This document shows, in pieces, positions 24 through 60,651 of a stretch of DNA of 64,000 nt. The first letter of the stretch is position 1. Every line of letters begins with the position of its first letter. The notes beneath the pieces were generated by a model. That model made no database searches. It saw only the letters and a program-made list of their open reading frames with translations, and was not told where the DNA came from. Made by a program: the position numbers and the translations under genes. The stretch comes from Actinomycetota bacterium (GTDB taxonomy: Bacteria > Actinomycetota > Acidimicrobiia > Acidimicrobiales > JAJPHE01), in NCBI GenBank assembly GCA_027315345.1, contig DAHUYE010000008.1, positions 55,265 through 119,264 on the forward strand, in the 5' to 3' direction.

Positions 24-818
24 TCAAGCTCTGCCCCCTGAGGCGGTGCGGCGCTCGATCAGGGTGCTGAAACTGGCCGCCACTTCGGTCTCGGGGACCC
101 GCTCGAAGCCCTCGGCGGTGATGGTGGCCACGGTCGGGTAGATGCCCCGTACCACGTCGGGCCCGCCGGTGGCGGTGTCCTCATCGGCGGCCTCGTACAG
201 GGCCTGGACGGCCACCTCGATGGCCCGGGTGCGGTCCATCCCGTCCTGGAAGGCCATCTTGATGGCCGTGCGGGCGTCCCGTCCGCCCGAACCGGTGGTC
301 TGGAAGTCGCGCTCCTCGTAGGGCCCACCGGAGGGGTCGTAGGTGAAGATCCGCCCGGTCTGGCGGCGCAGGTCGAACCCGGCGAAGAGCGGCACCACCA
401 CGAAGCCCTGCATGGCCATGGGCAGGTTCTGGCGGATCATCTGGCCCAGCTGGTTGGCCTTGCCCTCCAGGGACAGGGCCAGGCCCTCCACCTTCTCGTA
501 ATGCTCCAGCTGGGTCTGGAACAGGCGGACCATCTCGATGGCGGGGCTGGCCGCCCCGGCAAAGCACACCCCGGAGTGGCTGTCGGCTGGGAACAGCTTC
601 TCAACCGAGCGGTGGGCGATCTCGTGTCCGGCCGTGGCCCGGCGGTCCCCGGCCATGAGGATGCCATCGGCGTAGCGCATGGCCAGGACGGTCGTGCCGT
701 GGGTGACCGGAGTCGTGGATGGGGAGGAGGGCACGGCCGGGGCCGGCCTGACCCGGCGCAGCAACTCGGTGAAGCTGGGGCCGGGGTCCTCGGTGGCGGG
801 GAAGAGCGGCAGGCTCAT
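24..818 (-). CDS. prcB: 20S proteasome beta subunit PrcB
   Basis: 264-aa ORF. A propeptide is followed by HGTTVLAM (Thr-1 nucleophile context) and GDRRAT, with the overall Ntn-hydrolase beta-subunit pattern. It lies directly downstream of pup, as in the canonical actinobacterial locus. prcA would lie beyond position 1. Confidence 0.93.
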   Translation of the reverse strand: MSLPLFPATEDPGPSFTELLRRVRPAPAVPSSPSTTPVTHGTTVLAMRYADGILMAGDRRATAGHEIAHRSVEKLFPADSHSGVCFAGAASPAIEMVRLFQTQLEHYEKVEGLALSLEGKANQLGQMIRQNLPMAMQGFVVVPLFAGFDLRRQTGRIFTYDPSGGPYEERDFQTTGSGGRDARTAIKMAFQDGMDRTRAIEVAVQALYEAADEDTATGGPDVVRGIYPTVATITAEGFERVPETEVAASFSTLIERRTASGGRA

Positions 819-840
819 GGGCGCCGGGACGCCCCGCGCC

Positions 841-1035
841 TCACTGGCCGCCCTTCTGGACGTAGTTACGGACGAACTCCTCGGCGTTGTCCTCCAGGAC
901 CTCGTCGATCTCGTCCAGAAGGTCGTCGAGCTCGGCCTTGAGCTTCTCGCCCTTCTCGGTGCCGGCCGGAGCCGCCTCTTCGGTGGTCTCCTCTCTCGGC
1001 GGGGCCTGTCTCTTCTTCTGTTCGCGCTCTGGCAT
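841..1035 (-). CDS. pup: Prokaryotic ubiquitin-like protein Pup
   Basis: 64 aa, acidic and low-complexity, ending ...FVRNYVQKGGQ. The C-terminal GGQ is the Pup hallmark. Flanked by dop and prcB. Confidence 0.95.
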   Translation of the reverse strand: MPEREQKKRQAPPREETTEEAAPAGTEKGEKLKAELDDLLDEIDEVLEDNAEEFVRNYVQKGGQ

Positions 1036-1042
1036 CGGTCTC

Positions 1043-2530
1043 CTATGAGCCCAGTCTTTCCAGCAGTTCGGCTGGGCTTCTACATCCTTCTAACAAACTA
1101 TCGACGTGGGCGGCGGTACCCCTTAGGGGTTCCATCATGGGAACTCTCCTCAGGGGGTCGGTACCCAGGTCGAAGACCAGGGAGTCCCAGTTGGCGGCGG
1201 CTATGGACGAGGCCCACCGCTGGAGGCACTTGCCCCGGAAGTAGGCCCGGGTGTCCCGGGGTGGCTCGGTCATGGCCGTCTCCACCTCGGCATCGGTGGA
1301 TATGCGCTGCATGTCCAGCCGGCTGAAGAGGGAACGCTCGGGCCGCAGATCGTGGTACTGGAGGTCCATGGCGGCCAGGCGGTGGTCGTCCCAGCTGAGC
1401 TGGTGGCGCTCCCGGTAGCCGTCCACGATGCGGTACTTGGCCACCCAGTCCAGCTGGTCGGCCAAGGTCATGGGGTCGGATTCCAGGCCCTCCAGGACGG
1501 CGCCCCAGCGTCTCAGGACCTCGTCCCCGTCCCCGTCGGGGCCCAGGCACTCCAGGCCCCGCTCATGGGCGTACTTGGCGGCCAGGTCGTGCAGGGCCCA
1601 CTGGATGTCCAGCCCGGAGAGCTTCCGACCGTCGGCCAGATCCAGGGGCAGGCCCAGGGTCAGGTCGTAGGACACCCGGCGCAGAGCCTGGACCGGGGCC
1701 ACCAGGGTCAGGTCGGTGTCGGCCACCCAGTCGTCCTCGATCATGGCCAGGACGAGGGAGGTCACCCCCACCTTGAGGTAGGTGGCCACCTCGGACAGGT
1801 TGGCGTCGCCCAGGATGACGTGCAGGCGCCGGTACTTCTGGCCGTCGGAGTGGGGTTCGTCCCGGGTATTGACGATGGGCCGCTTTAGGGTCGTCTCCAG
1901 GCCGACCTCCTCCTCGAAGAAGTCGGCCCGTTGGGAGAGCTGGAAGTTGACCGTCCCCGACGACCCCGGCGCCTCGCTGCCCACCTTGCCCGCCCCGGCG
2001 AAGATCTGCCTGGTCACCAGGTACGGGATCAGGTGGTGGACCAACTTGGCGAAGGGGACGGCCCGGTCCACCAGATAGTTCTCGTGGCAGCCGTAGGAGT
2101 TGCCCTTGCGATCGGAGTTGTTCTTGTAGACGACGATGCCCTGGCCGGCGCCCAGCATGCGCTCCGCCGCCGCCATGGAACGGATGAGGATGCGCTCCCC
2201 GGCCCGGTCGAAGATGACGATGGCCCGGGCGCTGGTGCACTCCGGGGAGGAGTACTCGGGATGGGCGTGGTCGACGTAATAGCGGGCCCCGTTGGTGAGC
2301 ACGGTGTTGACCAGGTTGGTCTCCACCTCGGGCGGGGCCGAACCCTCCCGGGCGAAGCCGCGGGCGTCGTTGCCGGGGGCCTCGTCCTCGAAGTCCCAGC
2401 CCACCCGGCGCTGGAACTCGTTTACGTAGGCGTTGATGAGGGCCGATGAGGCGGCTATGGGGTTGTGCTCCCCTGCCCCGCCCATGATCCCGAACTCGGT
2501 CTCGATCCCGCAGACCTTGGGGATGGCCAT
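1043..2530 (-). CDS. dop: Pup deamidase/depupylase Dop (Dop/PafA carboxylate-amine ligase family)
   Basis: 495 aa with the N-terminal CGIETEFG motif of the Dop/PafA family. The position between mpa and pup and the ~500-aa length favour Dop over PafA. I could not verify the Dop-specific loop. Confidence 0.82.
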   Translation of the reverse strand: MAIPKVCGIETEFGIMGGAGEHNPIAASSALINAYVNEFQRRVGWDFEDEAPGNDARGFAREGSAPPEVETNLVNTVLTNGARYYVDHAHPEYSSPECTSARAIVIFDRAGERILIRSMAAAERMLGAGQGIVVYKNNSDRKGNSYGCHENYLVDRAVPFAKLVHHLIPYLVTRQIFAGAGKVGSEAPGSSGTVNFQLSQRADFFEEEVGLETTLKRPIVNTRDEPHSDGQKYRRLHVILGDANLSEVATYLKVGVTSLVLAMIEDDWVADTDLTLVAPVQALRRVSYDLTLGLPLDLADGRKLSGLDIQWALHDLAAKYAHERGLECLGPDGDGDEVLRRWGAVLEGLESDPMTLADQLDWVAKYRIVDGYRERHQLSWDDHRLAAMDLQYHDLRPERSLFSRLDMQRISTDAEVETAMTEPPRDTRAYFRGKCLQRWASSIAAANWDSLVFDLGTDPLRRVPMMEPLRGTAAHVDSLLEGCRSPAELLERLGS

Positions 2531-2554
2531 GGAGTCGACGCTACACAGAACCGG

Positions 2555-4324
2555 TTAGAGGTACTGCCCGGTACCAACCCGCTCGATGGCCCGGCCCCCG
2601 TTGGTCTCGTCCTCCCGGGCCATGAGGGTGCGGACATAGACGATGCGCTCGCCCTTCTTGCCCGAGATCTTGGCCCAGTCGTCCGGGTTGGTGGTGTTGG
2701 GCAGATCCTCCTGCTCCTTGTACTCCTGCTTGATGGAGGCCAGGAGATCGGAGGTGCGGATGCCGCGACCCTCCCCGGCGATGTTGCGCTTGATGGCCAG
2801 CTTCTTGGCCCGGCGCACGATGTTCTCGATCATGGCCCCCGAGGAGAAGTCCTTGAAGAACAGGATTTCCTTGTCACCATTCTGGTAGGTGACCTCCAGG
2901 AACCGATTTTCCTCATCGTCGCGGTACATCTCGGCCACGGTGCGCTCGATCATCACCTTGACGGCCTTGTCCCGGTCGCCCCCGCCCAGGGAGGCCACCT
3001 CCTCCTCGTCCAGGGGGAGGTCGCTGGTCAGGTAGCGCCCGAAGATCTGGGCGGCGGCGGTGTTGTCCGGCCGCTCGATCTTGATCTTCACGTCCAGGCG
3101 GCCCGGGCGCAGGATGGCCGGGTCGATCAGGTCCTCCCGGTTGGAGGCGCCGATGACGATCACGTTGCGGAGGGTCTCCACGCCGTCGATCTCGGCCAGG
3201 AGCTGGGGGACGATGGTCGACTCCATGTCCGAACTGATGCCCGTGCCACGGGTGCGGAAGAGGGAATCCATCTCATCGAAGAACACGATGACGGGGACGC
3301 CCTCCTCGGACTTCTCCCGAGCCCGCTGGAACACCAGGCGGATCTGGCGCTCCGTCTCGCCCACGTACTTGTTGAGGAGCTCGGGGCCCTTGATGTTGAG
3401 GAAGTAGCTGCGGGAGTTCCGGTCCCCGGTGACCTGGGAGACCTTCTTGGCCAGGGAGTTGGCCACCGCCTTGGCGATCAGGGTCTTGCCACATCCGGGC
3501 GGGCCGTAGAGCAGGATGCCCTTGGGGGCGGGCAGCTTGTGCTCGATGAACAGGTCCCGGTGCAGGAAGGGCAGCTCCACCGCGTCGGTGATGGCCTCGA
3601 TCTGGCTGTCCAGGCCGCCGACGTCCTCGTAGGAGACGTCGGGAACCTCCTCCAGGATCAGCTCCTCGACCTCGGGCCGGGGCAGCCGCTCGAGTAGCAG
3701 GCCGCTGCGGGGATCCATTAGGAGGGTGTCGCCCGCCCGTAACTTCACGTCGGCCAGGGTGTCGGCCAACTCGACCACCCGCTCCTCATCGGCGCGCCCG
3801 ACTATGAGGGCCCGCTTCTCATCCAGACGGTCCTTGAGCACGACCACCTCACCGGAGATCTCCCCGCCGCGGGCCAGGACGACGTTGAGGGAATCGTTGA
3901 GAACGACCTCCTGGCCCCGCTGGAGGGAGTCCTCGTCCAGTTCGGGGTGCAGGGAAACCCGCATCTTGCGCCCCCCGGAGAAGACATCGACGGTGCCGTC
4001 CTCGTTCCGGCCGATGAAGGTCCCGTAGGCGGCCGGAGGCTGGGTGAGCTTGTCCACCTCCTCGCGCAGGGCGGCGATGTGCTCGCGCGCCTCCCGCAGG
4101 GTGTAGGTCAGCTTCTCATTCTGGGAGACGGCCTGGGACAGCTGGCCCTTGGTCTCCAGGAGCTTCTCCTCCAGGGTGCGGACCCGCTTGGGGGCCTCCT
4201 GGAGCCGGCGGCGCAGGGTGAGGACTTCCTCCTCGAGGGCCTTGGCCTGCTGCTGCAGGTCGGCAACCTCCCGCTCGTAGGCGGACAGCCGACGCTCGTA
4301 TTCTTCTTCAGGCGTCGGGACCAC
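2555..4324 (-). CDS. mpa: Proteasome-associated AAA ATPase Mpa/ARC
   Basis: 589 aa. N-terminal coiled-coil heptads, Walker A GPPGCGKT, Walker [10 protein letters not shown], and a C-terminal GQYL proteasome-docking motif. Confidence 0.95.
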
Positions 4325-4478
4325 CTCCTCCCTTCGGAATTCGACCCTACACCGCCACCTGGGGCGCGCAGTGTATGCCGACAGCGTGACCTATTTCACC
4401 GGTTTCGCCCGGGTTAATGGCCGCTACCATCCGCCTGGTAGCCTCCGCCGCCGACTTGGACCCCGAAAGGCGAACGCG

Positions 4479-4718
4479 ATGAAGGTCTGGATCGACCAGG
4501 ATCTGTGTACCGGTGACGGCCTCTGTGAGGAGATCGCCCCGGCCGTGTTCACCCTGCTCGACGACGGCCTGGCCTACGTCAAGGAGGGGGACAAGGTGAT
4601 GAGCGACCCGGGCGGCCCCCAGGGCATGGCCCAGGTGCCCGAGGGCATGGAGGAAGCCGTGGTCGAGGCCTCCGAGGAGTGCCCGGGCGAGTGCATCTTC
4701 ATCGAAAAGGAAGCTTGA
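4479..4718 (+). CDS. Small single-cluster ferredoxin (CxxDxxC...CP type)
   Basis: Internal ATG at 4479 preceded by GAAAGG. The 79-aa product MKVWIDQDLCTGDGLCEEIAP...ECPGECIF matches 3Fe-4S/4Fe-4S actinobacterial ferredoxins. The upstream part of the track ORF (from 4371) looks non-coding. Confidence 0.8.
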   Translation: MKVWIDQDLCTGDGLCEEIAPAVFTLLDDGLAYVKEGDKVMSDPGGPQGMAQVPEGMEEAVVEASEECPGECIFIEKEA

Positions 4719-4719
4719 G

Positions 4720-5496
4720 CTAAACCGGCCCTATGTAGCGGGCGTGGGTGAGGAAGCCGGTGTGGGCCACCATGCGGTGGTCGGGCCGGACGGATCGGCC
4801 CTCCACGTGCCAGGTGCGCAGTAGGACCTCCAGGGTCTCGGCCAGCACGAAGGGGTGCTCGGCCAGGGTCTCCCGCAGGGTGGCGGTCTGGTTGATGGTG
4901 GGCAGGTAGGCCAGGAAGATGGCCCCCGGGCGCATGGCGCCGGCGGCGTGGGGCACCACCTGCCAGGGCTCGGGGAGGTCCAGCACCACCCGGTCGAGAT
5001 CGGTCTCCTCGATCCCGTCGTAGATGTCCGCGGCCCGGACCGAATAGCGGGACAGGGCCTCGGCGCCCAGGAAGGACTCCACGTTGGACCGGGCCCGCTC
5101 GGCGAAGTCGGCCCGGATCTCGTACCCGCTCACCTGGGCTCCGGCTCGCAACATCGTCATGGACAGGGCCCCGGAGCCGACCCCGGCCTCGACCACCCGG
5201 GCGCCGGGGAAGATGTCGGCCAGGAGCAGGATCTGGCCCAGGTCCTTGGGATAGATGACCTGGGCCCCCCGGGGCATCTTGAGGACGAAGTCGGGCAGGG
5301 TGGGCCGCACGGCCAGATATCTGGCCCCCGAGCCGGTCCGCACCGTGGTCCCCTCCTGGCAGCCGATCAGGTCATCGTGGGCGAAGAAGCCGGCGTGGCT
5401 GTGGAACGACGCCCCCTCGGCCAGGGTGATCAGGTAGCGCCGGCCCTTGCTGTCGAGGAGGAGGGCCCGCTCCCCGGGGGCGAAAAGGCGGGTCAC
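4720..5496 (-). CDS. trmI: tRNA (adenine58-N1)-methyltransferase TrmI
   Basis: The C-terminal 258 aa of the 367-aa track ORF align by eye with Rv2118c-type TrmI (GRRY...RPxLxDxxxxMPRGxQVIYPKD, SAM motif EAGVGSGALS). GTG at 5496 forms a GTGA overlap with the ttuA stop. The upstream part of the ORF is an Arg/Gly/Pro-rich artefact. Confidence 0.85.
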   Translation of the reverse strand: MTRLFAPGERALLLDSKGRRYLITLAEGASFHSHAGFFAHDDLIGCQEGTTVRTGSGARYLAVRPTLPDFVLKMPRGAQVIYPKDLGQILLLADIFPGARVVEAGVGSGALSMTMLRAGAQVSGYEIRADFAERARSNVESFLGAEALSRYSVRAADIYDGIEETDLDRVVLDLPEPWQVVPHAAGAMRPGAIFLAYLPTINQTATLRETLAEHPFVLAETLEVLLRTWHVEGRSVRPDHRMVAHTGFLTHARYIGPV

Positions 5497-6449
5497 CGGC
5501 GGGCCCGGCGGCGCCGGGTCGGAACCGGCACGGGAGTGGACTCCCCCACCGCCGCCACGGAGTCGACCAGTCGGCAGAAGGCGCACTGGCCCGACGGGGT
5601 CGGAGCGCCACAGGTCGTGCAGGGCTTCAACTCGCCCCGGTCCTCCTCGGATTCGGGTCGGAAGTGGGGCAGGCCCCGAGCCAGAAAGCCGGTGTAGAAG
5701 GCCTGTTTCGAGCCGGGCGACGCCTCCTCGATCAAGTTGAGGGCGGCTTTGTAGCCGAGGTGCCGGTTGCCCTCGGCCATGGGGCATTCCTCCACGATGT
5801 AGTCGATGCCGCGCAGCACGCAATAGGCGGCCATCTCCCTCTCGCCCAGGCGGATCAGGGGCTTCACCTTCCGGGCGAAGCCGGCCGCCTCGGGCAGGAC
5901 GGGCTCCTGGCGGCCCAGGTAATCGGTGGACCAGCGCAGGACGTTGCCGAGCAGGACTGCGGCTTCGTCATCCAGGTTGTGGCCGGTGGCCACCACGTCG
6001 TAGCCGCCGTTCAGGGCGGCCTGGTTGAACAGGTGGCGCTTGGACAGACCGCAGGCCGAGCACGGGACCCGGCGGGCGGCGGCCGCCCCTTCGGGTACGC
6101 CGAACCCGAAGCGGGAGGGGAGGTCGATCTCCACCAGGCGGGCCTGCCTGGACTCGGCGAAGGTGCGGACGTAGGCACCGGACTCATCGCTGTAGGCCCC
6201 GATGCCCAGGCCGAGATACAGGCCGTCGGCCTGATAACCCAGATCGAGCAGGAGGTCCCAGAGGGCCAGGGAGTCCTTGCCCCCGGAGACGGCCACCAGC
6301 ACCCGCTCTCCCGGGGCGACCATCTTGTGCTCCTCGATGGCCCGGCGGACCTGCTCGGCGCAGTGCCGCAGGAAGCAGGTGGAGCAGAAACCGGCGTTGT
6401 GCCGCCTGACCTCGATCACGGCCGGCGCCCGGCAGCGGCGGCACCTCAC
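5493..6449 (-). CDS. ttuA: PP-loop tRNA 2-thiolation protein, TtuA/Ncs6-like
   Basis: 318 aa. PP-loop SGGKDS, an N-terminal CRRC...CSTC pair and a C-terminal CTTC...CAFC pair (zinc fingers), plus central CSAC and a later Cys (Fe-S ligand pattern). It is coupled to a ThiS-like gene upstream. TtcA-type s2C32 specificity cannot be excluded by eye. Confidence 0.78.
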   Translation of the reverse strand: MRCRRCRAPAVIEVRRHNAGFCSTCFLRHCAEQVRRAIEEHKMVAPGERVLVAVSGGKDSLALWDLLLDLGYQADGLYLGLGIGAYSDESGAYVRTFAESRQARLVEIDLPSRFGFGVPEGAAAARRVPCSACGLSKRHLFNQAALNGGYDVVATGHNLDDEAAVLLGNVLRWSTDYLGRQEPVLPEAAGFARKVKPLIRLGEREMAAYCVLRGIDYIVEECPMAEGNRHLGYKAALNLIEEASPGSKQAFYTGFLARGLPHFRPESEEDRGELKPCTTCGAPTPSGQCAFCRLVDSVAAVGESTPVPVPTRRRRARR

Positions 6450-6646
6450 CCGGCGCCGCCGGAGATGACCGGCCGGACCTCGATCAGATCGGTGTCATCC
6501 AGCAAGGCGTCCTCGGTCACCAGGGTGTCGCCCCGGATGACCAGCACCGACTCCCGGTTGAGATCGAGGTGGCGGAGCAGGGCGCCGACCCGGAGGGGGC
6601 CGACCACGTCCACCTCCCGCCTCGGGTTACGCAGCAGGACCTTCAT
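6446..6646 (-). CDS. ttuB: ThiS/MoaD-family ubiquitin-like sulfur carrier (TtuB-like)
   Basis: 66 aa with a beta-grasp-like pattern, ending ...IEVRPVISGGAG (diglycine plus a 2-residue extension). Its stop overlaps the ttuA GTG start (GTGA at 6446-6449). Confidence 0.7.
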   Translation of the reverse strand: MKVLLRNPRREVDVVGPLRVGALLRHLDLNRESVLVIRGDTLVTEDALLDDTDLIEVRPVISGGAG

Positions 6647-6656
6647 GGCGGCGGGC

Positions 6657-6854
6657 TCAGCCCGGGGCCACGTGGTGGGTGATGACCACCGCCTGGCCGG
6701 GAGCCAGCTCCTCGCTCCAAACCGGCTGCGGGCCCCGGCGGGACCGGGACCTGCGCAGGATCCACGCCAGTGTCCCCACCGCCAGCCAGGGAGTGCTGCC
6801 CCGGAGGCCCTGACGCATGCCCCGGGCCACCAGCATGTCGAGCAGCTTGGACAT
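6657..6854 (-). CDS. Hypothetical small protein
   Basis: 65-aa ORF located 10 nt upstream of ttuB, with its start overlapping the stop of the preceding small ORF (TGATG). Composition is protein-like, but I recognise no family. Confidence 0.4.
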   Translation of the reverse strand: MSKLLDMLVARGMRQGLRGSTPWLAVGTLAWILRRSRSRRGPQPVWSEELAPGQAVVITHHVAPG

Positions 6855-7060
6855 CAGACCCGCCGTACCTCGACCACCGTCTTGTTCTTCCGGCCCCGGC
6901 GCCGGCCCAGCAGGTAGGCCACCCCCACCACGACCACTGCGAGGGCCCCGGCCACGGCCAGGCCGGCGGGGGCCGCCGCCCGGGCGCCCTGGTCGGCCTG
7001 TTGGCGGATCTCCTCGGCCTTGGCCTGGATGTCGTCTCTGGTGATGCGGGTCTCGGGCAT
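6854..7060 (-). CDS. Small membrane-anchored protein (helical N-terminal segment, one TM helix, basic tail)
   Basis: An internal ATG at 7060 gives a 68-aa product, MPETRITRDDIQAKAEEIRQQ...AVVVVGVAYLLGRRRGRK. The longer 190-aa track ORF is an Arg/Gly/Pro-rich artefact. Part of a tightly packed trio with 7063-7395. Confidence 0.45.
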   Translation of the reverse strand: MPETRITRDDIQAKAEEIRQQADQGARAAAPAGLAVAGALAVVVVGVAYLLGRRRGRKNKTVVEVRRV

Positions 7061-7062
7061 GG

Positions 7063-7395
7063 TCAGCTCCCAGCCTTGCGGGTGGCGCCCGAGACGATGG
7101 CCCGGGCGGCCAGGGCCGCCACGACCATCCCGGTGGCCAGGGTTATGACATACGGCAGGGGGGTCAGATCCCCGTGGAAGGTCGAGCCGGTCTCGGTCTG
7201 GAGCAGGCGCAGGACCCCGACCAGCAGCACCACCAGCCCGATCGACGTGCAAACCCCGCCGGCCACTCCGTAGGCCACGAAGCGCAGCAGAGCCTTGAGG
7301 GGCTCCACCGCCTCCTGTTTGAAGTAGGCCACCACCATCTCCCACAACTCGGAGACCAGCTGTGGGATACCTGGGTCCTGCTTCGGCTCGGGCAC
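7063..7395 (-). CDS. Two-TM membrane protein, actinobacterial holin-X-like (DUF1469-like) architecture
   Basis: 110 aa, with an amphipathic N-terminal segment followed by two hydrophobic helices (GVAGGVCTSIGLVVLLVGVL; YVITLATGMVVAALAA). The family assignment is by architecture only. Confidence 0.5.
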   Translation of the reverse strand: MPEPKQDPGIPQLVSELWEMVVAYFKQEAVEPLKALLRFVAYGVAGGVCTSIGLVVLLVGVLRLLQTETGSTFHGDLTPLPYVITLATGMVVAALAARAIVSGATRKAGS

Positions 7396-7404
7396 CAGCG
7401 GGTT

Positions 7405-8070
7405 CTATCGCCCCCTCAGGCGCCACGCAAACAGGTCGATGGCGGCTTCGGCCATCTCGACCAGGAGTTCGAGGCGGCGGCGGCCGTCGGCTTCCAGGAG
7501 GCGCTGGCGGTCAACCGGGCCCACCGGCACGACCGAGCACAGCTGCCAGGAGGCCACCACCGGATCCGGATCGAGATCGAACACGGCCGGGGCCAACACC
7601 GGGATCTCGGTGTTGTCCACCCCGAGCTCCACGGCCAGGGCAAGAGCCCGGCGGACGAGTCGCTCGGCTCGCCTCACCAGCTCCGGATCGGCCCACTCCC
7701 CGCCTTCTTCGGGCAGGGATTGGATGAGGGCGACCGGGTACGGGTCGTCGGGAAGCCAGGTGACGATCTTCACCCGGCGGTCGCCCTTGGTGACCAGGGC
7801 CCAGCGGCCGTCGGGAAACTCGGCCTCGGCCACGATGCGAGCCACCGTGCCCACCCCGAAGCGGCTGTCGCCCCCACCGACTTCCGGGCCCCTCTCGATC
7901 AGGACCACCCCGAACTCGCGCCCCGAACGCAGGCAATCCCGGGTCAGCGCCCGGTAACGGGGCTCGAAGACGTGCAACGGCAGGGGCATGCCGGGGAAGA
8001 GAACCGTGCCCAACGGGAACATGCCGATGGGCAGGACCGGAGCCTCGTCCTGCTCCCCGCTACCACCCAT
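7405..8070 (-). CDS. LON substrate-binding (N-terminal) domain protein
   Basis: 221 aa. The motif MFPLGTVLFPGMPLPLHVFEPRYR is the classic Lon N-domain opening. There is no AAA or protease domain. The start may be at an internal Met. Confidence 0.8.
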   Translation of the reverse strand: MGGSGEQDEAPVLPIGMFPLGTVLFPGMPLPLHVFEPRYRALTRDCLRSGREFGVVLIERGPEVGGGDSRFGVGTVARIVAEAEFPDGRWALVTKGDRRVKIVTWLPDDPYPVALIQSLPEEGGEWADPELVRRAERLVRRALALAVELGVDNTEIPVLAPAVFDLDPDPVVASWQLCSVVPVGPVDRQRLLEADGRRRLELLVEMAEAAIDLFAWRLRGR

Positions 8071-8150
8071 ACCGTGACGCTACCGCCGGGGGCCGGCCCG
8101 GCCCGGGGCCCGGGTGGTCGGCAGCCCGGGCCGTTGGGGTAACCTGGGGG

Positions 8151-8891
8151 ATGCTCCATGCACTGGTGGCGGTGCTGGTCGGCCTGGCCATTTGCCAGTT
8201 GGCCAACCTGGTTACGACCGTGTTTCTGCACCGGGCCCTTTCCCACCGGGCCCTGACCCTTTCCCCCGGCATAACCTTTGCCTTCCGGGTGGTGACCTGG
8301 CTGTCCACCGGCATCCGGCCCCGCCAGTGGGTGGCCGTGCACCGCAAGCACCACGCCTTCACCGACGTGGAGGGTGATCCGCACTCCCCCGTGATCCTCG
8401 GCTACGCCAAGGTTCAGCTCGGCAATGTCGGGCTGTACCGGAAGGCGGCCAAGGACGAGGCCGTGGTGGCCCGCTACGCCCGGGATCTCCCGGCCGACCG
8501 CTGGGACCGGGTGCTCTTCGACCACGCCCTGATCGGCCTAGGGATCGGCACCGCTCTGCTGTGGCTCATCCTGGGCTGGCAGTGGGCCCTCCTGGCCGGA
8601 GGGGTCCATATGGCCAGCTATCTCGGCCTGTCCGCCTCCGTCAATGCCATCGGCCACACCTGGGGCCGGCGCCGCTATGACAACCCGGCCCGCAACAACC
8701 AGTGGCTGGCCTGGCTGACGGCCGGTGAGGGCCTGCACAACAACCACCACGCCGCTCCGACCTTCGCCCGCCTGGCCCACATGGCCCGGGAGATCGACCC
8801 GGGCTGGTGGCTGGTGCGGCTCCTGGTGGGCCGGGGCTGGGCCTCGGTGCGCCATGAAGAGGCCAAGCTCAAGGTCCCCAGCGCCGCCTGA
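8151..8891 (+). CDS. Membrane fatty-acid (acyl-CoA/acyl-lipid) desaturase
   Basis: 246 aa with three His boxes (HRALSH, HRKHH, HNNHH) and hydrophobic segments in the expected order. Confidence 0.85.
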   Translation: MLHALVAVLVGLAICQLANLVTTVFLHRALSHRALTLSPGITFAFRVVTWLSTGIRPRQWVAVHRKHHAFTDVEGDPHSPVILGYAKVQLGNVGLYRKAAKDEAVVARYARDLPADRWDRVLFDHALIGLGIGTALLWLILGWQWALLAGGVHMASYLGLSASVNAIGHTWGRRRYDNPARNNQWLAWLTAGEGLHNNHHAAPTFARLAHMAREIDPGWWLVRLLVGRGWASVRHEEAKLKVPSAA

Positions 8892-11226: not shown

Positions 11227-12348
11227 ATGACCAATCTCGACCGCCTCTTCCGTGAAGAGGGTCAGAGTCCCTGGCTGGACAACCTCCAGCGCTCATTCCT
11301 CTCCGATGGAACCCTCACCCGCCTCATCGGCCAGGGTGTCCGCGGGGTGACTTCCAACCCCACCATCTTCCAGAAGGCCATCGAGGCCGGCGCCGACTAC
11401 GACCAGCAGTTCAGTGACGTGCTGGCCTCCAAGACGGTGGAGGAGGCCTATTGGGAGCTGGTGATATCCGACATCGAAGGGGCGCTGGCCTGCTTCGCCC
11501 CGCTGCACGAGGAGTCCGGGGGCCGGGACGGCTTCGTGTCCCTGGAGGTATCCCCGGCCCTGGCCGAGGACACCGAGGCCACCATCCGCTCGGCCCGTCA
11601 CCTGCACGAGCGCATCGCCAAGTCGAACTTGCTGGTGAAGATCCCCGCCACCCAGGCCGGCGTGCCCGCCATTCACCAGATGATCTCCGAGGGCCGCAGC
11701 ATCAACGTCACCCTCATCTTCAGCCTCGAGCGTTACGCCGATGTGATCGAGGCCTACATCTCCGGGCTGGAGAAGTTCGTGACGGGTGGAGGCGATCCGT
11801 CCACGGTCCACAGCGTGGCGTCCTTCTTCATCTCCCGGGTCGACACCGAGGCGGACCGGCGCCTGGACCAGGTGGCCGCCCAGGCTGAAGGGGCCGGAGC
11901 GGAGGAGGCCCGGTCGCTCAAGGGACGTCTGGCCGTGGCCCAGGCCAAGCTGGCCTATCAGCTGTTCCGGGAGCGCTTCACCGGGCCCCGCTGGGACGCC
12001 TTGGTCGCCCGGGGCGCCAACGTGCAGCGGCCGCTGTGGGCGTCGACGTCCACCAAGAACAAGGCCTACCCCGATCTGCTCTACGTCGACAGCCTGATCG
12101 GGCCGGACACCGTCAACACCATGCCGGACGCCACCGTGGAGGCCTTCCTGGATCATGGGACCGTCGGGCGCACCGTGGATGCCGAGGTGGACGCAGCCCG
12201 GGCCGACCTGCAGAAGGCCGACGCTCTGGGGGTCGACATGGCCGACGTGTCCGAGGTGCTGGAGGAAGAAGGGGTGGCCGCCTTCACCAAGTCCTTCGAT
12301 GAACTGATGCAGCGCCTCAACGACAAGGCGGAGGCCGTCAGCCGGTGA
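11227..12348 (+). CDS. tal: Transaldolase (actinobacterial long type)
   Basis: 373 aa with GQSPWLDNL...GVTSNPTIF and the Schiff-base Lys context LLVKIPAT. Confidence 0.93.
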   Translation: MTNLDRLFREEGQSPWLDNLQRSFLSDGTLTRLIGQGVRGVTSNPTIFQKAIEAGADYDQQFSDVLASKTVEEAYWELVISDIEGALACFAPLHEESGGRDGFVSLEVSPALAEDTEATIRSARHLHERIAKSNLLVKIPATQAGVPAIHQMISEGRSINVTLIFSLERYADVIEAYISGLEKFVTGGGDPSTVHSVASFFISRVDTEADRRLDQVAAQAEGAGAEEARSLKGRLAVAQAKLAYQLFRERFTGPRWDALVARGANVQRPLWASTSTKNKAYPDLLYVDSLIGPDTVNTMPDATVEAFLDHGTVGRTVDAEVDAARADLQKADALGVDMADVSEVLEEEGVAAFTKSFDELMQRLNDKAEAVSR

Positions 12349-13706
12349 GCACGCTGGCTCAGCGGCTCCGGGCCGGGGATGACACCCTCTGGCCGGCCGG
12401 AAACGTCGCTCCCACCCGCCTGGGTTGGCTGGAGGTCCCTCAGCGGATGCACCGGGAGGCCAAGGACCTGGCCCGTTGGGCCGCCGACATCCCCTTCACC
12501 CGGGTGATCCTGCTCGGCATGGGCGGTTCCTCCCTGGGCCCGGAAGTGCTGCGCCTGACCCGGGACGCCTTGGGGGCCGAGGGCCGGGAGCTGATCGTGC
12601 TCGACACCACCGATCCGGCCACGGTGGCCTCCACCGATCTGGAGGACGCCTTCTTCCTGGTTTCGTCCAAGTCGGGCACGACCCTGGAGGTCGAGGTGCT
12701 CCTGGCCCACGCCTGGGCGTCGCACCCGGACGGATCCCGATACGCCGCCATCACCGATCCGGACACGCCGTTGGCCGCCCTGGCCCACGAGCGGTCCTTC
12801 GATCGCGTCTTCATCAACCCCCCCGACATCGGCGGGCGCTATTCCGTCCTTTCCTACTTCGGGCTGGTGCCGGCCGCCCTGGCCGGCATCGAGGTGGACG
12901 GTCTGTGCGAGATGGCCCTGGAGACCGATATCGAGGGCGCCGTCGATCTGGGGTCAGGCATGGGCGAGGCGGCCCGTCACGGCCAGGACAAGGTCACCAT
13001 CAAGGTCCCGCCCGAGTTCGCCAGCTTCGGGCTATGGGTGGAGCAGCTCATCGCCGAGTCGACGGGCAAGTCCGGGGTCGGCTGCGTGCCGGTGCCCACC
13101 ACCGAGGACGAGAACGGGGACGACCGGCATCGGGTGGAGGTGGAGGCGGCCCGGCTCATCGACCTGGGCGGCCTGTTCTACCGCTGGGAGGTGGCCACGG
13201 CCGTGGCCGGCCATGTCCTCGGCATCGACCCCTTCAACGAGCCCAACGTGGCCGAATCCAAGGCGGCCACCCGGGAGGTGCTGGGTTCACTGCCTCTGCC
13301 CGAGCAGGACTACGCCGCCGCCACCGATGTGTCCGGCTGGTTGGACGAGGTCCTGCAGACGGGGGACTACATATCCGTGCAGGCCTATCTCCCCTACGGC
13401 CACCCGGAGGAACTGGAGAAGGTCCGCCGCAAGCTGCGCGACGACCGGGGCGGAATGGCCGTGACGGCGGGATACGGGCCCCGCTTCCTGCACTCCACCG
13501 GCCAACTTCACAAGGGCGGGCCCAACGAGGTGGTGGCCCTGCAGCTGCTGCGGGCCGGTGACCAGCCCAAGGTGGCCATCCCGGATCACGCCTATGACTT
13601 CGGCACCCTCATCACCGCCCAGGCCCTGGGCGACTACCGGAGCCTCCAGCGCCACGACCGCCGCGTGTTGCGGGTGGCCGTCGAAGATCTGGCTGAGCTG
13701 GCCTGA
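12345..13706 (+). CDS. pgi: Glucose-6-phosphate isomerase (short SIS-type Pgi)
   Basis: 453 aa with the SIS motif ILLGMGGSSLGPEV and a later SKSGTTLE. GTGA overlap with the tal stop. This resembles the Pgi half of transaldolase/Pgi fusion proteins. Confidence 0.82.
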   Translation: MSTLAQRLRAGDDTLWPAGNVAPTRLGWLEVPQRMHREAKDLARWAADIPFTRVILLGMGGSSLGPEVLRLTRDALGAEGRELIVLDTTDPATVASTDLEDAFFLVSSKSGTTLEVEVLLAHAWASHPDGSRYAAITDPDTPLAALAHERSFDRVFINPPDIGGRYSVLSYFGLVPAALAGIEVDGLCEMALETDIEGAVDLGSGMGEAARHGQDKVTIKVPPEFASFGLWVEQLIAESTGKSGVGCVPVPTTEDENGDDRHRVEVEAARLIDLGGLFYRWEVATAVAGHVLGIDPFNEPNVAESKAATREVLGSLPLPEQDYAAATDVSGWLDEVLQTGDYISVQAYLPYGHPEELEKVRRKLRDDRGGMAVTAGYGPRFLHSTGQLHKGGPNEVVALQLLRAGDQPKVAIPDHAYDFGTLITAQALGDYRSLQRHDRRVLRVAVEDLAELA

Positions 13707-13739
13707 GGCCGGTCGTTCTCTGCCAACCCCCAACGACTC

Positions 13740-13746
13740 AGGAGGA
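13740..13746 (+). promoter_or_regulatory. Shine-Dalgarno sequence of gnd
   Basis: AGGAGGA located 8 nt upstream of the ATG at 13755. Confidence 0.7.
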
Positions 13747-13754
13747 ATGCCTAA

Positions 13755-14663
13755 ATGAAACTCGGGATGATCGGTCTCGGACGCATGGGCGCCAATATGA
13801 CCAGGCGTCTTCTGGAAGGCGGTCATCAGGTGGTGGCCTTCGATCTGTCCGAGGAGGCCCGGGCCGGAGTAGCCGCCCACGGAGCCGCCACCGCCGCCAC
13901 CCTGCCGGAGTTGATCGCCCAGCTGGAGGCGCCCCGGGTGGCCTGGGTGATGGTGCCGGCCGGCGCCCCCACCGATGAGACCATCGACACCCTGGCCGGG
14001 CTGATGTCGCCCGGTGACGTGATCGTCGACGGTGGCAACTCCTTCTACAAGGACGGCCAGGCCGCCGCCGAGAGGCTTGCCCCCAAGGGGGTGCGCTTCA
14101 TCGACGCCGGCGTGTCCGGAGGCATCTGGGGGCTGGAGAACGGCTATTGCATGATGGTGGGCGGGGACAAGGAGGCGGTGGCCGTGGTGGAGCCGGCCTT
14201 CCGCACCCTGGCCCCTCCCGACGGCTATGCCCACGTCGGCCCGGTGGGCGCAGGCCATTACGTCAAGATGGTCCACAACGGCATCGAATACGGGATGATC
14301 CAGGCCTACGGGGAAGGCTTCGAGCTTATGCACGCCGCCGAGGAATTCGACCTCGACCTCCACGAGATCGCCTCGATCTGGCGGTACGGATCGGTCGTGC
14401 GCTCCTGGCTGCTGGAATTGGCCGAGCTGGCGCTGCGGGAAGGTGCCGGCTTCGAGGACATCCGGGGCGTGGTGGCCGATTCCGGGGAGGGACGCTGGAC
14501 GGTGGAGGACGCCGTGCAACGGGCCGTCCCCGCCCCGGTCATCACCGCCTCCCTCTACGCCCGCTTCGCCTCCCGTCAGGAGGAGTCCTACGCCGCCCGG
14601 CTTTCGGCCGCTCTGCGCAATCAGTTCGGCGGTCATGCCATCGTGACCGAGCACGGCCCGTGA
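13755..14663 (+). CDS. gnd: 6-phosphogluconate dehydrogenase, decarboxylating (short ~300-aa type)
   Basis: 302 aa with the N-terminal Rossmann motif MIGLGRMGANM, then GGNS and HNGIEYG. Strong SD upstream. Confidence 0.9.
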   Translation: MKLGMIGLGRMGANMTRRLLEGGHQVVAFDLSEEARAGVAAHGAATAATLPELIAQLEAPRVAWVMVPAGAPTDETIDTLAGLMSPGDVIVDGGNSFYKDGQAAAERLAPKGVRFIDAGVSGGIWGLENGYCMMVGGDKEAVAVVEPAFRTLAPPDGYAHVGPVGAGHYVKMVHNGIEYGMIQAYGEGFELMHAAEEFDLDLHEIASIWRYGSVVRSWLLELAELALREGAGFEDIRGVVADSGEGRWTVEDAVQRAVPAPVITASLYARFASRQEESYAARLSAALRNQFGGHAIVTEHGP

Positions 14664-16162
14664 GCAACCCCCTCACCGCCGGGATGGAACTTGGCCGCAA
14701 GGCGCCGCCGGTGGCCTTGGTGGTGTTCGGGGCCTCCGGGGACCTGACCAGTCGCAAGTTGCTGCCGGCCCTGGCCGCGCTCTCGCGGCGGCGTCAGCTT
14801 ACCGATGCCTTCGCGGTGGTGGGGGTGGCCCGATCCGACATGGACGACCTGGCCTTCCGGAAGCTGGCCGCCGAGGCGGTCCCCGATGCCGATCCGGAGT
14901 GGGAGGAACTCGTCAAGGGTTTCCGGTATGTGCAGGGCGACTACGGCCACCCGGACACTTTCGAAGCGCTGCACGCCGTGCTGGACGAAGTGGATGAGAG
15001 CCGGGGCACCAATGGCAACCGGGTCTTCTATCTGGCCACCGTGCCCGAGCAGTTCGGGGTGGTGGCGGCGGCCCTGGACAAGCACGGCCTGGCCCGCCTC
15101 GCCCCCGGGCATTTCGGCCGCCTGGTCATCGAGAAGCCGTTCGGACACGACCCGCAGTCGGCGGCGGCCCTGGATGCCACCATCCACTCTGCCTTCGATG
15201 AGGACAGCATCTACCGGATCGACCACTACCTGGGCAAAGAAACGGTGCAGAACGTGCTGGCCCTGCGCTTCGCCAACGCCATCTTCGAGCCGGTGTGGAA
15301 CCGTCAGTATGTGGACCACATCCAGGTGACCGTGGCCGAGAGCCTGGGGGTCGGCCACCGGGGCGGCTTCTACGAGACGGCCGGTGCCCTGCGCGACATA
15401 GTGCAGAACCACGTCATGCAGGTACTCGGCATCACCCTCATGGAGCCCCCGGCCACCGTCGACGCCCAGGGCATCCGGGACGAGAAGGTGAAGCTGCTCA
15501 AGGCCATCGAGATCATGGATGAGGATCAGGTGGTGACCTCATCGGTGCGAGGCCAGTACGACGCCGGCTGGGTGGAGGGCGAGCCGGTCATCGGCTACCG
15601 CCAGGAGGAGGGGGTGGCTCCGGACAGCACCACCGACACCTACGTGGCCATGCGCCTGGCGGTGGACAACTGGCGCTGGGCCGGAGTGCCGATCTTCATC
15701 CGCACCGGCAAGCGCCTGCCCAAGCGGGTCACCGAGGTGGCCATGAGCTTCGAGAAGGTTCCCCATCTTCCCTTCGCCTCGGCCCTGACCCGGGATCTGG
15801 AGGCCAACAGTCTGGTGGTCCGCATCCAGCCCGATGAGGGCGTCACGGTCGGTTTCGGGGCCAAGGTCCCCGGATCGGAGTTCCGGATCCGCACCGTCTC
15901 CATGGACTTCGCCTACGGAGCCGCCTTCATCGAGGAATCCCCCGATGCCTACGAGCGCCTGTTGCTCGACGCCATGGTGGGTGATCCGACCCTCTTCATC
16001 CGAAGCGATGAGGTGGAACAGTCCTGGAAGGTGGTGGCCCCGGTCCTGTCGGCATGGGAGGCGGGCGACGTTCCGGTGTCGCGCTACGAAGCGGGATCTT
16101 GGGGTCCGCGCCAGGCCGACCGGCTCATCGAAGCCGGTGGCCGGCGCTGGCGCCGGCCCTGA
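14660..16162 (+). CDS. zwf: Glucose-6-phosphate 1-dehydrogenase
   Basis: Motifs FGASGDLTSRKLLPAL, RIDHYLGKE and EKPFG. GTG at 14660 forms a GTGA overlap with the gnd stop (alternative ATG at 14684). The 5' part of the 671-aa track ORF overlaps gnd out of frame and is an artefact. Confidence 0.9.
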   Translation: MSNPLTAGMELGRKAPPVALVVFGASGDLTSRKLLPALAALSRRRQLTDAFAVVGVARSDMDDLAFRKLAAEAVPDADPEWEELVKGFRYVQGDYGHPDTFEALHAVLDEVDESRGTNGNRVFYLATVPEQFGVVAAALDKHGLARLAPGHFGRLVIEKPFGHDPQSAAALDATIHSAFDEDSIYRIDHYLGKETVQNVLALRFANAIFEPVWNRQYVDHIQVTVAESLGVGHRGGFYETAGALRDIVQNHVMQVLGITLMEPPATVDAQGIRDEKVKLLKAIEIMDEDQVVTSSVRGQYDAGWVEGEPVIGYRQEEGVAPDSTTDTYVAMRLAVDNWRWAGVPIFIRTGKRLPKRVTEVAMSFEKVPHLPFASALTRDLEANSLVVRIQPDEGVTVGFGAKVPGSEFRIRTVSMDFAYGAAFIEESPDAYERLLLDAMVGDPTLFIRSDEVEQSWKVVAPVLSAWEAGDVPVSRYEAGSWGPRQADRLIEAGGRRWRRP

Positions 16163-16170
16163 CGGCGGCC

Positions 16171-17205
16171 GTGACCGATACCGCCTCGACCGACGGGCGC
16201 ATGATCGACTCCTGGAGCGCGCCCGACACCCGGTTCGCCGACGTCGTCAAGGAGTTGGACCGCATGCGGGCCGATGCCGAGATCGGTTCCACCCGGGCGG
16301 CGGTGGTCAATCTGGTGGTGCTGGCCGCCGCTGATGACGGGGCCACCCGGGCCATCGACTCCGTGGTCGGACTGGGTCAGCATCACCCCGGCCGGATCCT
16401 GGTCATCGTCCCCCGTGGTGGTGGTGGTGACGAGGACCGCATGGCGGCCTCCGTGGAGTTGTACTGCAGCCGGGTGGAGGACCGTTCGCTTTGGTGGGAT
16501 GTGGTCCGCCTGGAGATCGGCGGCCCGGTGGCCGCTCATGCCGAGTCAGTGGTCGAACCCCTCCTGCTCCACGATCTGCCGGTGGCGCTCTGGCTGGCGG
16601 GCGGCACCAGCCGGGTGGAGTCTCCCGGTCTTCTGGATCTGGCCTCGGTCATCATCGTCAGCGGGGAGCGGGCCGCCTCCAGCTCCCCTTCCGCCACCGC
16701 TGCGGACCTGGCCGGTCTGGTCCGGCTCAAGCCCGTGTCCGACCTGGCCTGGGTGGCCATCGAGCCGGCCCGCCAGGCCCTGGCCAGGGTCTTCGACGCC
16801 CCCGAGCGGGCTGCCCGGCTGGAGGCCGTGGGGGGCCTGAGCGTGGAGGGACCACCCTGGTCCAGCCGACTGCTGGCCGGCTGGTTCTGCGAGCGAACCG
16901 GTCTGGGCCCGGACCGGGTCCGGATCGTCCCGGGCGAGGAGCTGCGGGCCGAGGTGGATCTGGGCGCGGACCGGGCCGAGTTGGATGCCGGGCCGGTCTG
17001 GCCCGCCGGCCGGGTGACCCCCGACAGGCCGGAACCCGCCGGTAGCGGCCCCGGTGTGGCCGTGGCCCGGCTCGGATCCACCCGGGTCAGCGTCTCCCAC
17101 GGAGGATCGGCCACCCGTCGGCTCCTCTCCAGTGCCCTGAGCCATCCGTGGCGGGACCGCCGCTACGAGGCCGCCCTGGAGCTGGCTGGCAGGCTGGGTC
17201 AATGA
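16171..17205 (+). CDS. opcA: Glucose-6-phosphate dehydrogenase assembly protein OpcA
   Basis: Positioned between zwf and pgl with an OpcA-like pattern (VVNLVVLAA...GQHHPGRILVIV). Start is GTG 16171 or ATG 16201. Confidence 0.78.
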   Translation: MTDTASTDGRMIDSWSAPDTRFADVVKELDRMRADAEIGSTRAAVVNLVVLAAADDGATRAIDSVVGLGQHHPGRILVIVPRGGGGDEDRMAASVELYCSRVEDRSLWWDVVRLEIGGPVAAHAESVVEPLLLHDLPVALWLAGGTSRVESPGLLDLASVIIVSGERAASSSPSATAADLAGLVRLKPVSDLAWVAIEPARQALARVFDAPERAARLEAVGGLSVEGPPWSSRLLAGWFCERTGLGPDRVRIVPGEELRAEVDLGADRAELDAGPVWPAGRVTPDRPEPAGSGPGVAVARLGSTRVSVSHGGSATRRLLSSALSHPWRDRRYEAALELAGRLGQ

Positions 17206-60628: not shown

Positions 60629-60651
60629 GCCCCATCCTGGCCCAGTTCGGC

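Follow-up and report, generated by a model that had tools for sequence, protein, structure and literature searches.

A 64,000-nucleotide (nt) stretch of DNA (hereafter the window) from the metagenome-assembled genome (MAG) of an Acidimicrobiales bacterium (assembly GCA_027315345.1, contig DAHUYE010000008.1, positions 55,265-119,264 of the forward strand; G+C content 70.8%) contains three overlapping genes, ttuB, ttuA and trmI, that encode a sulfur carrier, a tRNA thiolase and a tRNA methyltransferase, respectively. It is likely, with a probability of roughly 0.75, that the trio constitutes a tRNA T-loop modification module that thiolates U54 and methylates A58. The assignment draws on homology, conserved residues, gene order and gene overlaps, and on the conservation of these features, while we infer the chemistry by analogy with the systems of Thermus and Pyrococcus. 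Each component is an orthologue of a characterized enzyme, and what is new is the arrangement of the genes and their host range, not the identity of the genes.

Organization of the ttuB-ttuA-trmI unit

The three genes and their junctions, in window coordinates, are as follows.

6646..6446, minus strand: ttuB, a ThiS/β-grasp sulfur carrier of 66 amino acids (aa), stop codon at 6448-6446, protein ending ...PVISGGAG
6449..5493, minus strand: ttuA, a 318-aa PP-loop, [4Fe-4S]-type tRNA 2-thiouridine synthetase (homology, Pfam)
5496..4720, minus strand: trmI, a 258-aa tRNA (adenine58-N1)-methyltransferase (homology, Pfam)
6449-6446, minus strand: GTGA overlap of the ttuA GTG start (6449-6447) with the ttuB TGA stop (sequence)
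5496-5493, minus strand: GTGA overlap of the trmI GTG start (5496-5494) with the ttuA TGA stop (sequence)

A first-pass annotation of this DNA, made by a model from the sequence alone, had joined the three genes through the two GTGA overlaps, and both the coordinates and the junctions agree with the sequence. The GTG at 6449-6447 is the earliest start codon in the ttuA open reading frame (ORF). In alignments, Met1 of the window TtuA pairs with Met1 of Thermus TtuA, with Cys3 and Cys6 belonging to the first zinc finger, and residue 4 of the window TrmI pairs with residue 6 of Mycobacterium tuberculosis Rv2118c, where that alignment starts. The N-terminal homology to Thermus TtuA and Rv2118c thus supports the start calls of ttuA and trmI. 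The trio is a tight and conserved unit that is probably co-translated, and its genes are probably also co-transcribed. The earlier proposal of a single expression unit therefore stands with regard to the tightness, conservation and probable co-translation of the genes, although the unit probably comprises more than three of them (see below).

TtuA is closely related to the Thermus enzyme

The PP-loop protein matched Thermus thermophilus TtuA (5gha/5b4e) with 308 bits (E = 6e-91, 51% identity) and Pyrococcus horikoshii TtuA (PH0300) with 242 bits (42% identity), compared with 78 bits for the NcsA-type U34 thiolase 6scy and 38 bits for TilS among solved structures. As the identity between the two characterized TtuAs is only 42%, the 51% shared by the window protein and the Thermus enzyme supports the identification of the former as TtuA. 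The NCBIfam models gave a similar order (TtuA 248 bits, NcsA 107, TtcA 55 and TilS 40), and in Pfam both TtuA_LIM_N (38.4 bits, cut-off 27) and ATP_bind_3 exceeded their cut-offs. The archaeal and eukaryotic NcsA/Ncs6, which works with SAMP2/Urm1 and makes s2U34, and the bacterial TtcA, which makes s2C32, belong to the same PP-loop/Fe-S superfamily as the window TtuA, but their scores (78-107 bits and 55 bits, respectively) are far below the 308 bits of TtuA. A grouping with TtcA or with a non-tRNA enzyme, the alternative envisaged in the first-pass annotation, was not seen, the two TtuAs scoring 308 and 242 bits against 78, 55 and 38 for the other enzymes. By this ranking, which is one of pairwise and model scores, the PP-loop protein is an orthologue of TtuA. 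Annotation pipelines already label some related proteins ‘tRNA-5-methyluridine54 2-sulfurtransferase'.

The alignment of the window and Thermus TtuAs is ungapped over ∼270 residues, and residue numbers can thus be transferred from the Thermus enzyme. The functional residues located in this way are listed below.

6287-6270, minus strand: PP-loop SGGKDS, Ser55 to Ser60, the ATP-binding motif
6062-6060, minus strand: Cys130, Fe-S ligand by Thermus numbering
6053-6051, minus strand: Cys133, Fe-S ligand by Thermus numbering
6041-6039, minus strand: Lys137, a conjugation site in Thermus
5786-5784, minus strand: Cys222, Fe-S ligand by Thermus numbering
Zinc fingers (from the alignment): Cys 3/6/22/25 and Cys 277/280/289/292

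All of the motifs that had been read from the translation earlier, namely SGGKDS at 55-60, the CxxC...CxxC pairs at 3/6/22/25 and 277/280/289/292, and the central Cys130, Cys133 and Cys222, were found. In Thermus TtuA the [4Fe-4S] cluster is held by Cys130, Cys133 and Cys222 (PMC7025502). The window protein thus shares with the Thermus enzyme the PP-loop, the three cluster ligands, Lys137 and both zinc fingers, with the same numbering to residue ∼270. In contrast, Lys226 and Lys229, at which the Thermus enzyme is also conjugated, are not conserved.

Conservation was assessed in a search set with one genome per species, in which relatives are encoded by at least 514 stretches. The best 80 of these, with 63-76% identity to the window TtuA, were retained, and 6 kb of DNA on either side of each match was inspected. 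The titles of these loci name mostly Acidimicrobiia, Acidimicrobiales, Acidimicrobiaceae and Iamiaceae, while the rest are broader or apparently mislabelled; since the synteny is common to the latter as well, all 80 loci were treated as Acidimicrobiia. The PP-loop, the three cluster cysteines and Lys137 are kept in 80/80 TtuA sequences, as are the zinc-finger positions, except that residue 25 is either Cys or His and that one sequence has Ser277. Conservation of these residues at 63-76% overall identity indicates purifying selection on TtuA.

The fold and the cysteine layout are common to TtuA and NcsA, and the sequence offers no testable feature that would fix the site of thiolation. The PP-loop enzyme might thiolate another nucleoside, such as wobble U34 in the manner of NcsA/Ncs6, or serve a sulfur pathway unrelated to tRNA, the link to trmI being incidental. 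We regard this as very unlikely, as the TtuA scores are four times those of NcsA, the N-terminal LIM domain of TtuA scores above its Pfam cut-off and Pfam scans of the window ORFs revealed no biosynthetic genes nearby. Two further points that bear on the target, the linkage to a T-loop enzyme and the C-terminus of the carrier, are considered below.

TrmI is a predicted m1A58 methyltransferase

The product of the third gene is, by homology, a TrmI-type tRNA m1A58 methyltransferase. Two Pfam families, GCD14 (PF08704, 92.5 bits) and TrmI-like_N (PF14801, 72.5 bits), scored above their cut-offs, and the closest solved structure was that of M. tuberculosis Rv2118c (1i9g), which matched over its full length with 215 bits (E = 1e-62). 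The mycobacterial enzyme, which is homotetrameric, has the same two-domain layout. The solved TrmI structures from Pyrococcus, Thermus, Aquifex and Thermotoga matched as well, which makes five full-length matches in all. The Pfam and structure matches thus bear out the TtuB-, TtuA- and TrmI-type products that the first-pass annotation had read from the translations. In Thermus, m1A58 is a determinant for the 2-thiolation of residue 54 (PMC7912444, PMC3980101).

The gene order is fixed in Acidimicrobiia and recurs outside the class

The order ttuB-ttuA-trmI is kept in 80/80 loci wherever the contig reaches. The commonest ttuB/ttuA junction is a 4-nt overlap. At the ttuA/trmI junction, 45 of the 80 loci have a 4-nt overlap and 2 overlap by a single nt, the genes are up to 30 nt apart in 17 and further apart in 5, and 11 loci are ambiguous. 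The fixed order and the frequency of the overlaps argue that the arrangement did not arise by chance. An apparent single in-frame ORF spanning ttuA and trmI in one locus (L008) was rejected as a gene fusion, because translation shows a stop between the genes. The usual neighbours downstream are the genes for a ferredoxin, Mpa and Dop. Upstream, the trio is usually preceded by a Holin-X-like gene and a gene for a small membrane protein, often joined by one for a Lon-N-domain protein. The trio is present, intact and under purifying selection in at least 80 species-level genomes of Acidimicrobiia, and probably in several hundred.

A second search, with Thermus TtuA as query, identified relatives outside the class in Armatimonadota, Chloroflexota (Dehalococcoidia) and unclassified bacteria, with 55-62% identity. 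Seven contexts were inspected.

Thermus sp. (L081): ttuB-ttuA only; TtuB ends GG
Armatimonadota MAG (L082): ttuB-ttuA-trmI, 4-nt overlap; TtuB ends GG
Unclassified bacterium (L086): ttuB-ttuA-trmI; TtuB tail GA
Dehalococcoidia MAG (L083): ttuB-ttuA only; TtuB tail CG
Unclassified (L084): ttuB-ttuA, then a gene other than trmI; TtuB tail C
Unclassified (L085): ttuB-ttuA only; TtuB ends GG
Unclassified (L087): ttuB-ttuA only; TtuB ends GG

Linkage to trmI is thus found in two phyla or more without being universal, the pattern expected of functional coupling rather than of chance adjacency. It fits the role of m1A58 as a determinant of residue-54 thiolation in Thermus (PMC7912444, PMC3980101), and the retention of a T-loop enzyme beside ttuA across two phyla argues against a target elsewhere. 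In Thermus itself, trmI does not adjoin ttuA, whereas in the window the two genes overlap.

TtuB carries a tail beyond its Gly-Gly motif

The Pfam family ThiS matched the window TtuB with 24.2 bits against a cut-off of 22.5. Its closest solved structure is Thermus TtuB (5ztb_E, E = 1.2e-6), with an alignment that reaches the Gly-Gly motif, followed by SAMP2, for which the match is weak. The assignment as TtuB is supported by Thermus TtuB being the best match and by the location of ttuB directly upstream of ttuA, as in the Thermus system (TtuA and TtuB with TtuC, TtuD and IscS/SufS, making m5s2U54; 5b4e, 5gha, 5ztb). The C-terminus of the protein is encoded as follows.

6460-6455, minus strand: codons of the Gly-Gly motif, residues 63-64
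6454-6449, minus strand: tail Ala-Gly, followed by the stop codon

The earlier description of the ORF as ThiS-like was thus correct as to the type of carrier but overlooked the Ala-Gly tail that follows Gly-Gly. Thermus TtuB, in contrast, ends in Gly-Gly. The tail is not confined to the window: in 79 loci (one with an aberrant reading frame was left out) Gly-Gly itself is conserved, yet it forms the end of the protein in only 4, while residues follow it in 75. The tail is two residues long in 53 loci, one in 7, three in 5 and 5-32 in 10, some of the long tails consisting of Gly-rich repeats. Among the loci scored, 54 have Ala directly after Gly-Gly, while the remainder of the tail is variable. 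In three loci (L025, L042 and L053) the tail comprises 22-32 residues of Gly-rich repeats (in L042, CGGLLGLGGGLRGLGGG...) and runs through to the ttuA start.

An explanation of the tail by gene overlap was rejected. The 4-nt overlap does not force a tail, as GGATGA or GGGTGA would permit Gly-Gly followed by a stop with the same overlap, and the tail is not just a by-product of overlap, since it also occurs in loci without an overlap between ttuB and ttuA. In 42% of the loci a purine ends the first of the two Gly codons, compared with 27% for the Gly codons of neighbouring genes (binomial p = 0.002, uncorrected for the relatedness of the loci). In loci with a two-residue tail, such a codon places GGAGG or GGGGG upstream of the ttuA start at a spacing of exactly 5 nt. 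These data hint that the Gly-Gly codons (6455-6460) may double as a built-in ribosome-binding site for ttuA, the two codons of the tail then providing the 5-nt spacer.

In Thermus, the C-terminal glycine of TtuB is adenylated and then thiocarboxylated (PMC3980101). As this glycine is the reactive site of the Thermus mechanism, the tail must come off before the same chemistry could proceed here; by analogy, TtuB would be made as a precursor that works like its Thermus counterpart only after trimming. The near-universal tail points to a processing protease, which would be encoded elsewhere in the genome. Comparable carriers are known from secondary metabolism: QbsE has the tail Cys-Phe, which is cut by the JAMM protease QbsD, while CxnE has a 10-residue tail and the JAMM protease CxnF (PMC5925218). 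Like the window TtuB, both are ThiS/MoaD-type carriers with an internal Gly-Gly that require proteolytic maturation (PMC5925218). A ThiS-like carrier with residues after Gly-Gly is typical of such pathways (PMC5925218), and to that extent the tail speaks for a target of TtuA other than residue 54. In the QbsE and CxnE systems, however, the gene for the JAMM protease lies in the cluster of its carrier, while no JAMM motif turned up in the window or in the 80 loci. Both systems, moreover, serve secondary metabolism and not tRNA modification.

Proposed mechanism and evidence against it

In the proposed scheme the TtuB precursor would first lose the two residues past Gly-Gly, after which an E1-like enzyme, encoded elsewhere, would adenylate the C-terminal glycine of the trimmed protein and sulfur from a cysteine desulfurase would convert the adenylate to a thiocarboxylate. 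In the known system, as later structural work reportedly showed, the thiocarboxylated C-terminus of TtuB then reaches the Fe-S cluster of TtuA. The window TtuA would bind tRNA through its two zinc fingers, adenylate C2 of uridine 54 at its PP-loop and receive the sulfur of TtuB-COSH on the free iron of the [4Fe-4S] cluster held by Cys130, Cys133 and Cys222, yielding 2-thiouridine or 2-thioribothymidine at position 54. TrmI, with S-adenosylmethionine, would methylate N1 of adenine 58, the pairing partner of residue 54, and this methylation may stimulate the thiolation, as in Thermus. The overlapping stop and start codons would allow the three proteins to be made in one pass along a single mRNA, probably together with the products of four upstream genes. 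The product would be s2U54 instead of m5s2U54 if actinobacterial tRNAs lack ribothymidine, as those of mycobacteria reportedly do. No m5U54 methyltransferase was found among the 62 window ORFs that were scanned with Pfam.

Several observations weigh against a T-loop module operating in this way. First, Gly-Gly is not C-terminal in the window TtuB (...SGG-AG), and the Ala-Gly tail makes adenylation at Gly-Gly impossible in the protein as encoded. Second, a search of the window and the 80 loci for the motif of JAMM-type proteases gave only three spurious matches, and a locally encoded processing protease was rejected on these grounds. Third, the 62 window ORFs scanned with Pfam include neither an E1-like activator nor a rhodanese or a cysteine desulfurase, in agreement with the earlier statement that the activator and the desulfurase are absent from the window. 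Fourth, the choice between positions 54 and 34 cannot be read from the TtuA sequence; position 54 is the target by analogy with the Thermus enzyme, and is thus a prediction. Fifth, consensus scans, by which actinobacterial promoters are poorly covered, revealed neither a promoter nor a terminator in 4300-8400. Finally, the 247.8 bits of the window TtuA on NF049949, an equivalog model and the only TtuA model in NCBIfam, fall below the curated cut-off of 450. This shortfall says little, because authentic Thermus TtuA, run as a control, also failed the cut-off (292.8 bits), with a score profile like that of the window protein. The cut-off separates Pyrococcus-type sequences rather than TtuA function.

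Beyond the T-loop module itself, a wider proposition is that residue-54 thiolation is a lineage-wide trait of mostly mesophilic to cold-tolerant Acidimicrobiia, hard-wired to m1A58 in one operon and dependent on the maturation of pro-TtuB by a protease encoded elsewhere. We hold this tentatively, at a little under an even chance. With an intact trio in genomes of which many come from temperate soils and sediments, either the modification of residue 54 has a function at ambient temperatures or the enzymes have another task in Acidimicrobiia. The linkage to trmI provides genomic support for the dependency of s2U54 on m1A58, which has so far been shown only in Thermus.

The trio is not a general marker of thermophily

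The literature ties TtuA/TtuB and m5s2U54, or a 2-thiolated residue 54, to thermophiles and to the stabilization of tRNA in heat (PMC3980101, PMC6313347, PMC7912444). Searches of the literature found no description of TtuA/TtuB outside thermophiles, and full-text searches found no paper on these proteins in Actinomycetota, for which the first-pass annotation likewise knew of no description of the operon, and nothing relevant on tRNA thiolation in Acidimicrobiia. Three features appear to be undescribed: the constant linkage of ttuB, ttuA and trmI, the tail on nearly every pro-TtuB and the occurrence of the system in a class that is largely non-thermophilic. The proposal that the class thiolates residue 54 contradicts the textbook statement that the modification is restricted to thermophiles; it is a prediction made from homology alone.

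The operon had been taken as a sign of a (moderately) thermophilic lifestyle, on the grounds that 2-thiolation of residue 54 and m1A58 stabilize tRNA in heat. Apart from the literature, in which TtuA/TtuB and m5s2U54 come only from thermophiles (PMC3980101, PMC6313347, PMC7912444), amino-acid composition speaks for this proposal. Across 44 window proteins the IVYWREL fraction amounts to 0.417, which corresponds to a nominal growth optimum of 56 °C and exceeds the value expected of a mesophile, although the index is pushed up by a high G+C content such as that of the window. The conversion follows the 2007 regression of Zeldovich and colleagues. For five shared orthologues the window scored 0.457 against a mean of 0.441 (s.d. 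0.014) over 81 loci, some 1 s.d. above the mean and close to L036, a MAG that we believe to be from a hot spring; the spread among the loci is small. The inflation of the index in high-G+C proteomes makes the growth temperature read from amino-acid composition ambiguous.

The distribution of the genes argues in the other direction. The same trio occurs in all of the best 80 Acidimicrobiia loci, of which 19 are MAGs with Microflora Danica names, Microflora Danica being a project on soil and sediment samples from Denmark (PMC12313526). The names of further MAGs, as we read them, suggest Antarctic, permafrost, lake and soil-catalogue sources, with one from a hot spring. The hosts of the trio are thus mostly non-thermophiles and, on this genomic survey, the trio is not a marker of thermophily in general. 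The thermophilic lifestyle suggested earlier is not supported as a general explanation, and we judge it unlikely that the operon marks one.

Neighbouring genes and a possible longer unit

The genes that flank the trio are listed below.

7405..8070, minus strand: stand-alone Lon N-terminal (substrate-binding) domain protein, 221 aa (Pfam LON_substr_bdg, 106 bits)
7063..7395, minus strand: 110-aa membrane protein with a weak match, below cut-off, to Holin-X (PF07332); ends 2 nt before orf68
6854..7060, minus strand: orf68, one predicted membrane helix, no family match; 1-nt overlap with the orf65 start
6657..6854, minus strand: orf65, a small ORF without family match; ends 10 nt before the ttuB start
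4476..4718, plus strand: single-cluster 4Fe-4S ferredoxin (Pfam Fer4_15, 65.6 bits), convergent with trmI
4324-2555, minus strand: mpa/arc, named from its translation
2530-1043, minus strand: dop, named from its translation
1035-841, minus strand: pup, ending GGQ, named from its translation
818-24, minus strand: prcB, named from its translation

Seven co-directional genes thus occupy 8070-4720, in the order Lon-N, Holin-X-like, orf68, orf65, ttuB, ttuA and trmI, separated by 9, 2, -1, 10, -4 and -4 nt. As the four genes upstream of the trio are co-directional, with gaps of no more than 10 nt, the transcription unit probably extends to all seven. The Lon-N-domain gene, which heads the string and lies 9 nt from the next gene, is syntenic upstream in many of the 80 loci. 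The Holin-X-like gene is kept in nearly all of them and orf68 lies upstream of ttuB in most, while orf65 was detected by tblastn in a minority. At the other end, the stops of trmI and the ferredoxin gene are 1 nt apart (4716-4722), which closes the 3' end of the unit and leaves no room for terminators between the two genes. In the related loci the ferredoxin gene adjoins mpa and is separated from trmI by 1-4.5 kb of other genes. An Rfam scan of the entire window gave no match, and no tRNA genes whose T-loops could be inspected were found in the window.

The Pup-proteasome genes span 24..4324 on the minus strand, with Mpa and Dop syntenic in the related loci, such that the cluster sits between the Lon-N-domain gene and mpa-dop-pup-prcB. 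This location would suit a TtuB that is mainly a ubiquitin-like protein modifier, made as a pro-protein like ubiquitin and tied to the Pup-proteasome and Lon-N genes, with sulfur transfer as a secondary activity. Tails past Gly-Gly are indeed the rule for protein modifiers, and Lys137, a conjugation site, is invariant here. In Thermus, moreover, the proteins to which TtuB becomes conjugated include TtuA and TtuC, and thiolation is lower in a JAMM mutant (PMC3980101). We nevertheless consider a primary role in protein modification highly improbable. The proximity to the proteasome genes was probably inherited from trmI, because trmI lies near mpa also in actinobacteria that are not known to have ttuAB, such as M. 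tuberculosis (Rv2118c and Rv2115c). The mycobacterial trmI is near mpa as in the window, but to our knowledge M. tuberculosis has neither TtuA nor TtuB, whereas the window trmI is overlapped by ttuA, with ttuB before it. In addition, ttuB-ttuA occurs in unrelated contexts in Thermus, Armatimonadota and Chloroflexota, and the window scans and JAMM motif search found no E1, E2 or JAMM gene nearby.

Other features of the window

Elsewhere in the window, a pentose-phosphate cluster at 11227-17867 on the plus strand encodes transaldolase-like and glucose-6-phosphate-isomerase-like proteins (both from translations only), a 6-phosphogluconate-dehydrogenase-like protein, G6PD, OpcA and 6-phosphogluconolactonase. 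It is followed, at 17881-20175 on the plus strand, by a gene whose 764-aa product combines two radical-SAM stretches with a C-terminal region of the CofH/MqnC kind, as is the layout of fused FbiC-type F420 (FO) synthases. Two FtsW/RodA/SpoVE paralogues, at 38887-40206 (plus strand) and 40643-41794 (minus strand), are separated by a gene with a bifunctional-nuclease domain. At 59732-61653 the genes for a LigD primase-polymerase domain (minus strand) and an ATP-dependent DNA ligase (plus strand) diverge and overlap at their 5' ends, the arrangement of a split LigD of non-homologous end joining. Finally, an HU-type DNA-binding protein encoded at 63158-63700 on the minus strand carries a C-terminal extension of ∼90 residues that weakly resembles the histone H1-like HC2, comparable to actinobacterial HupB-type proteins.

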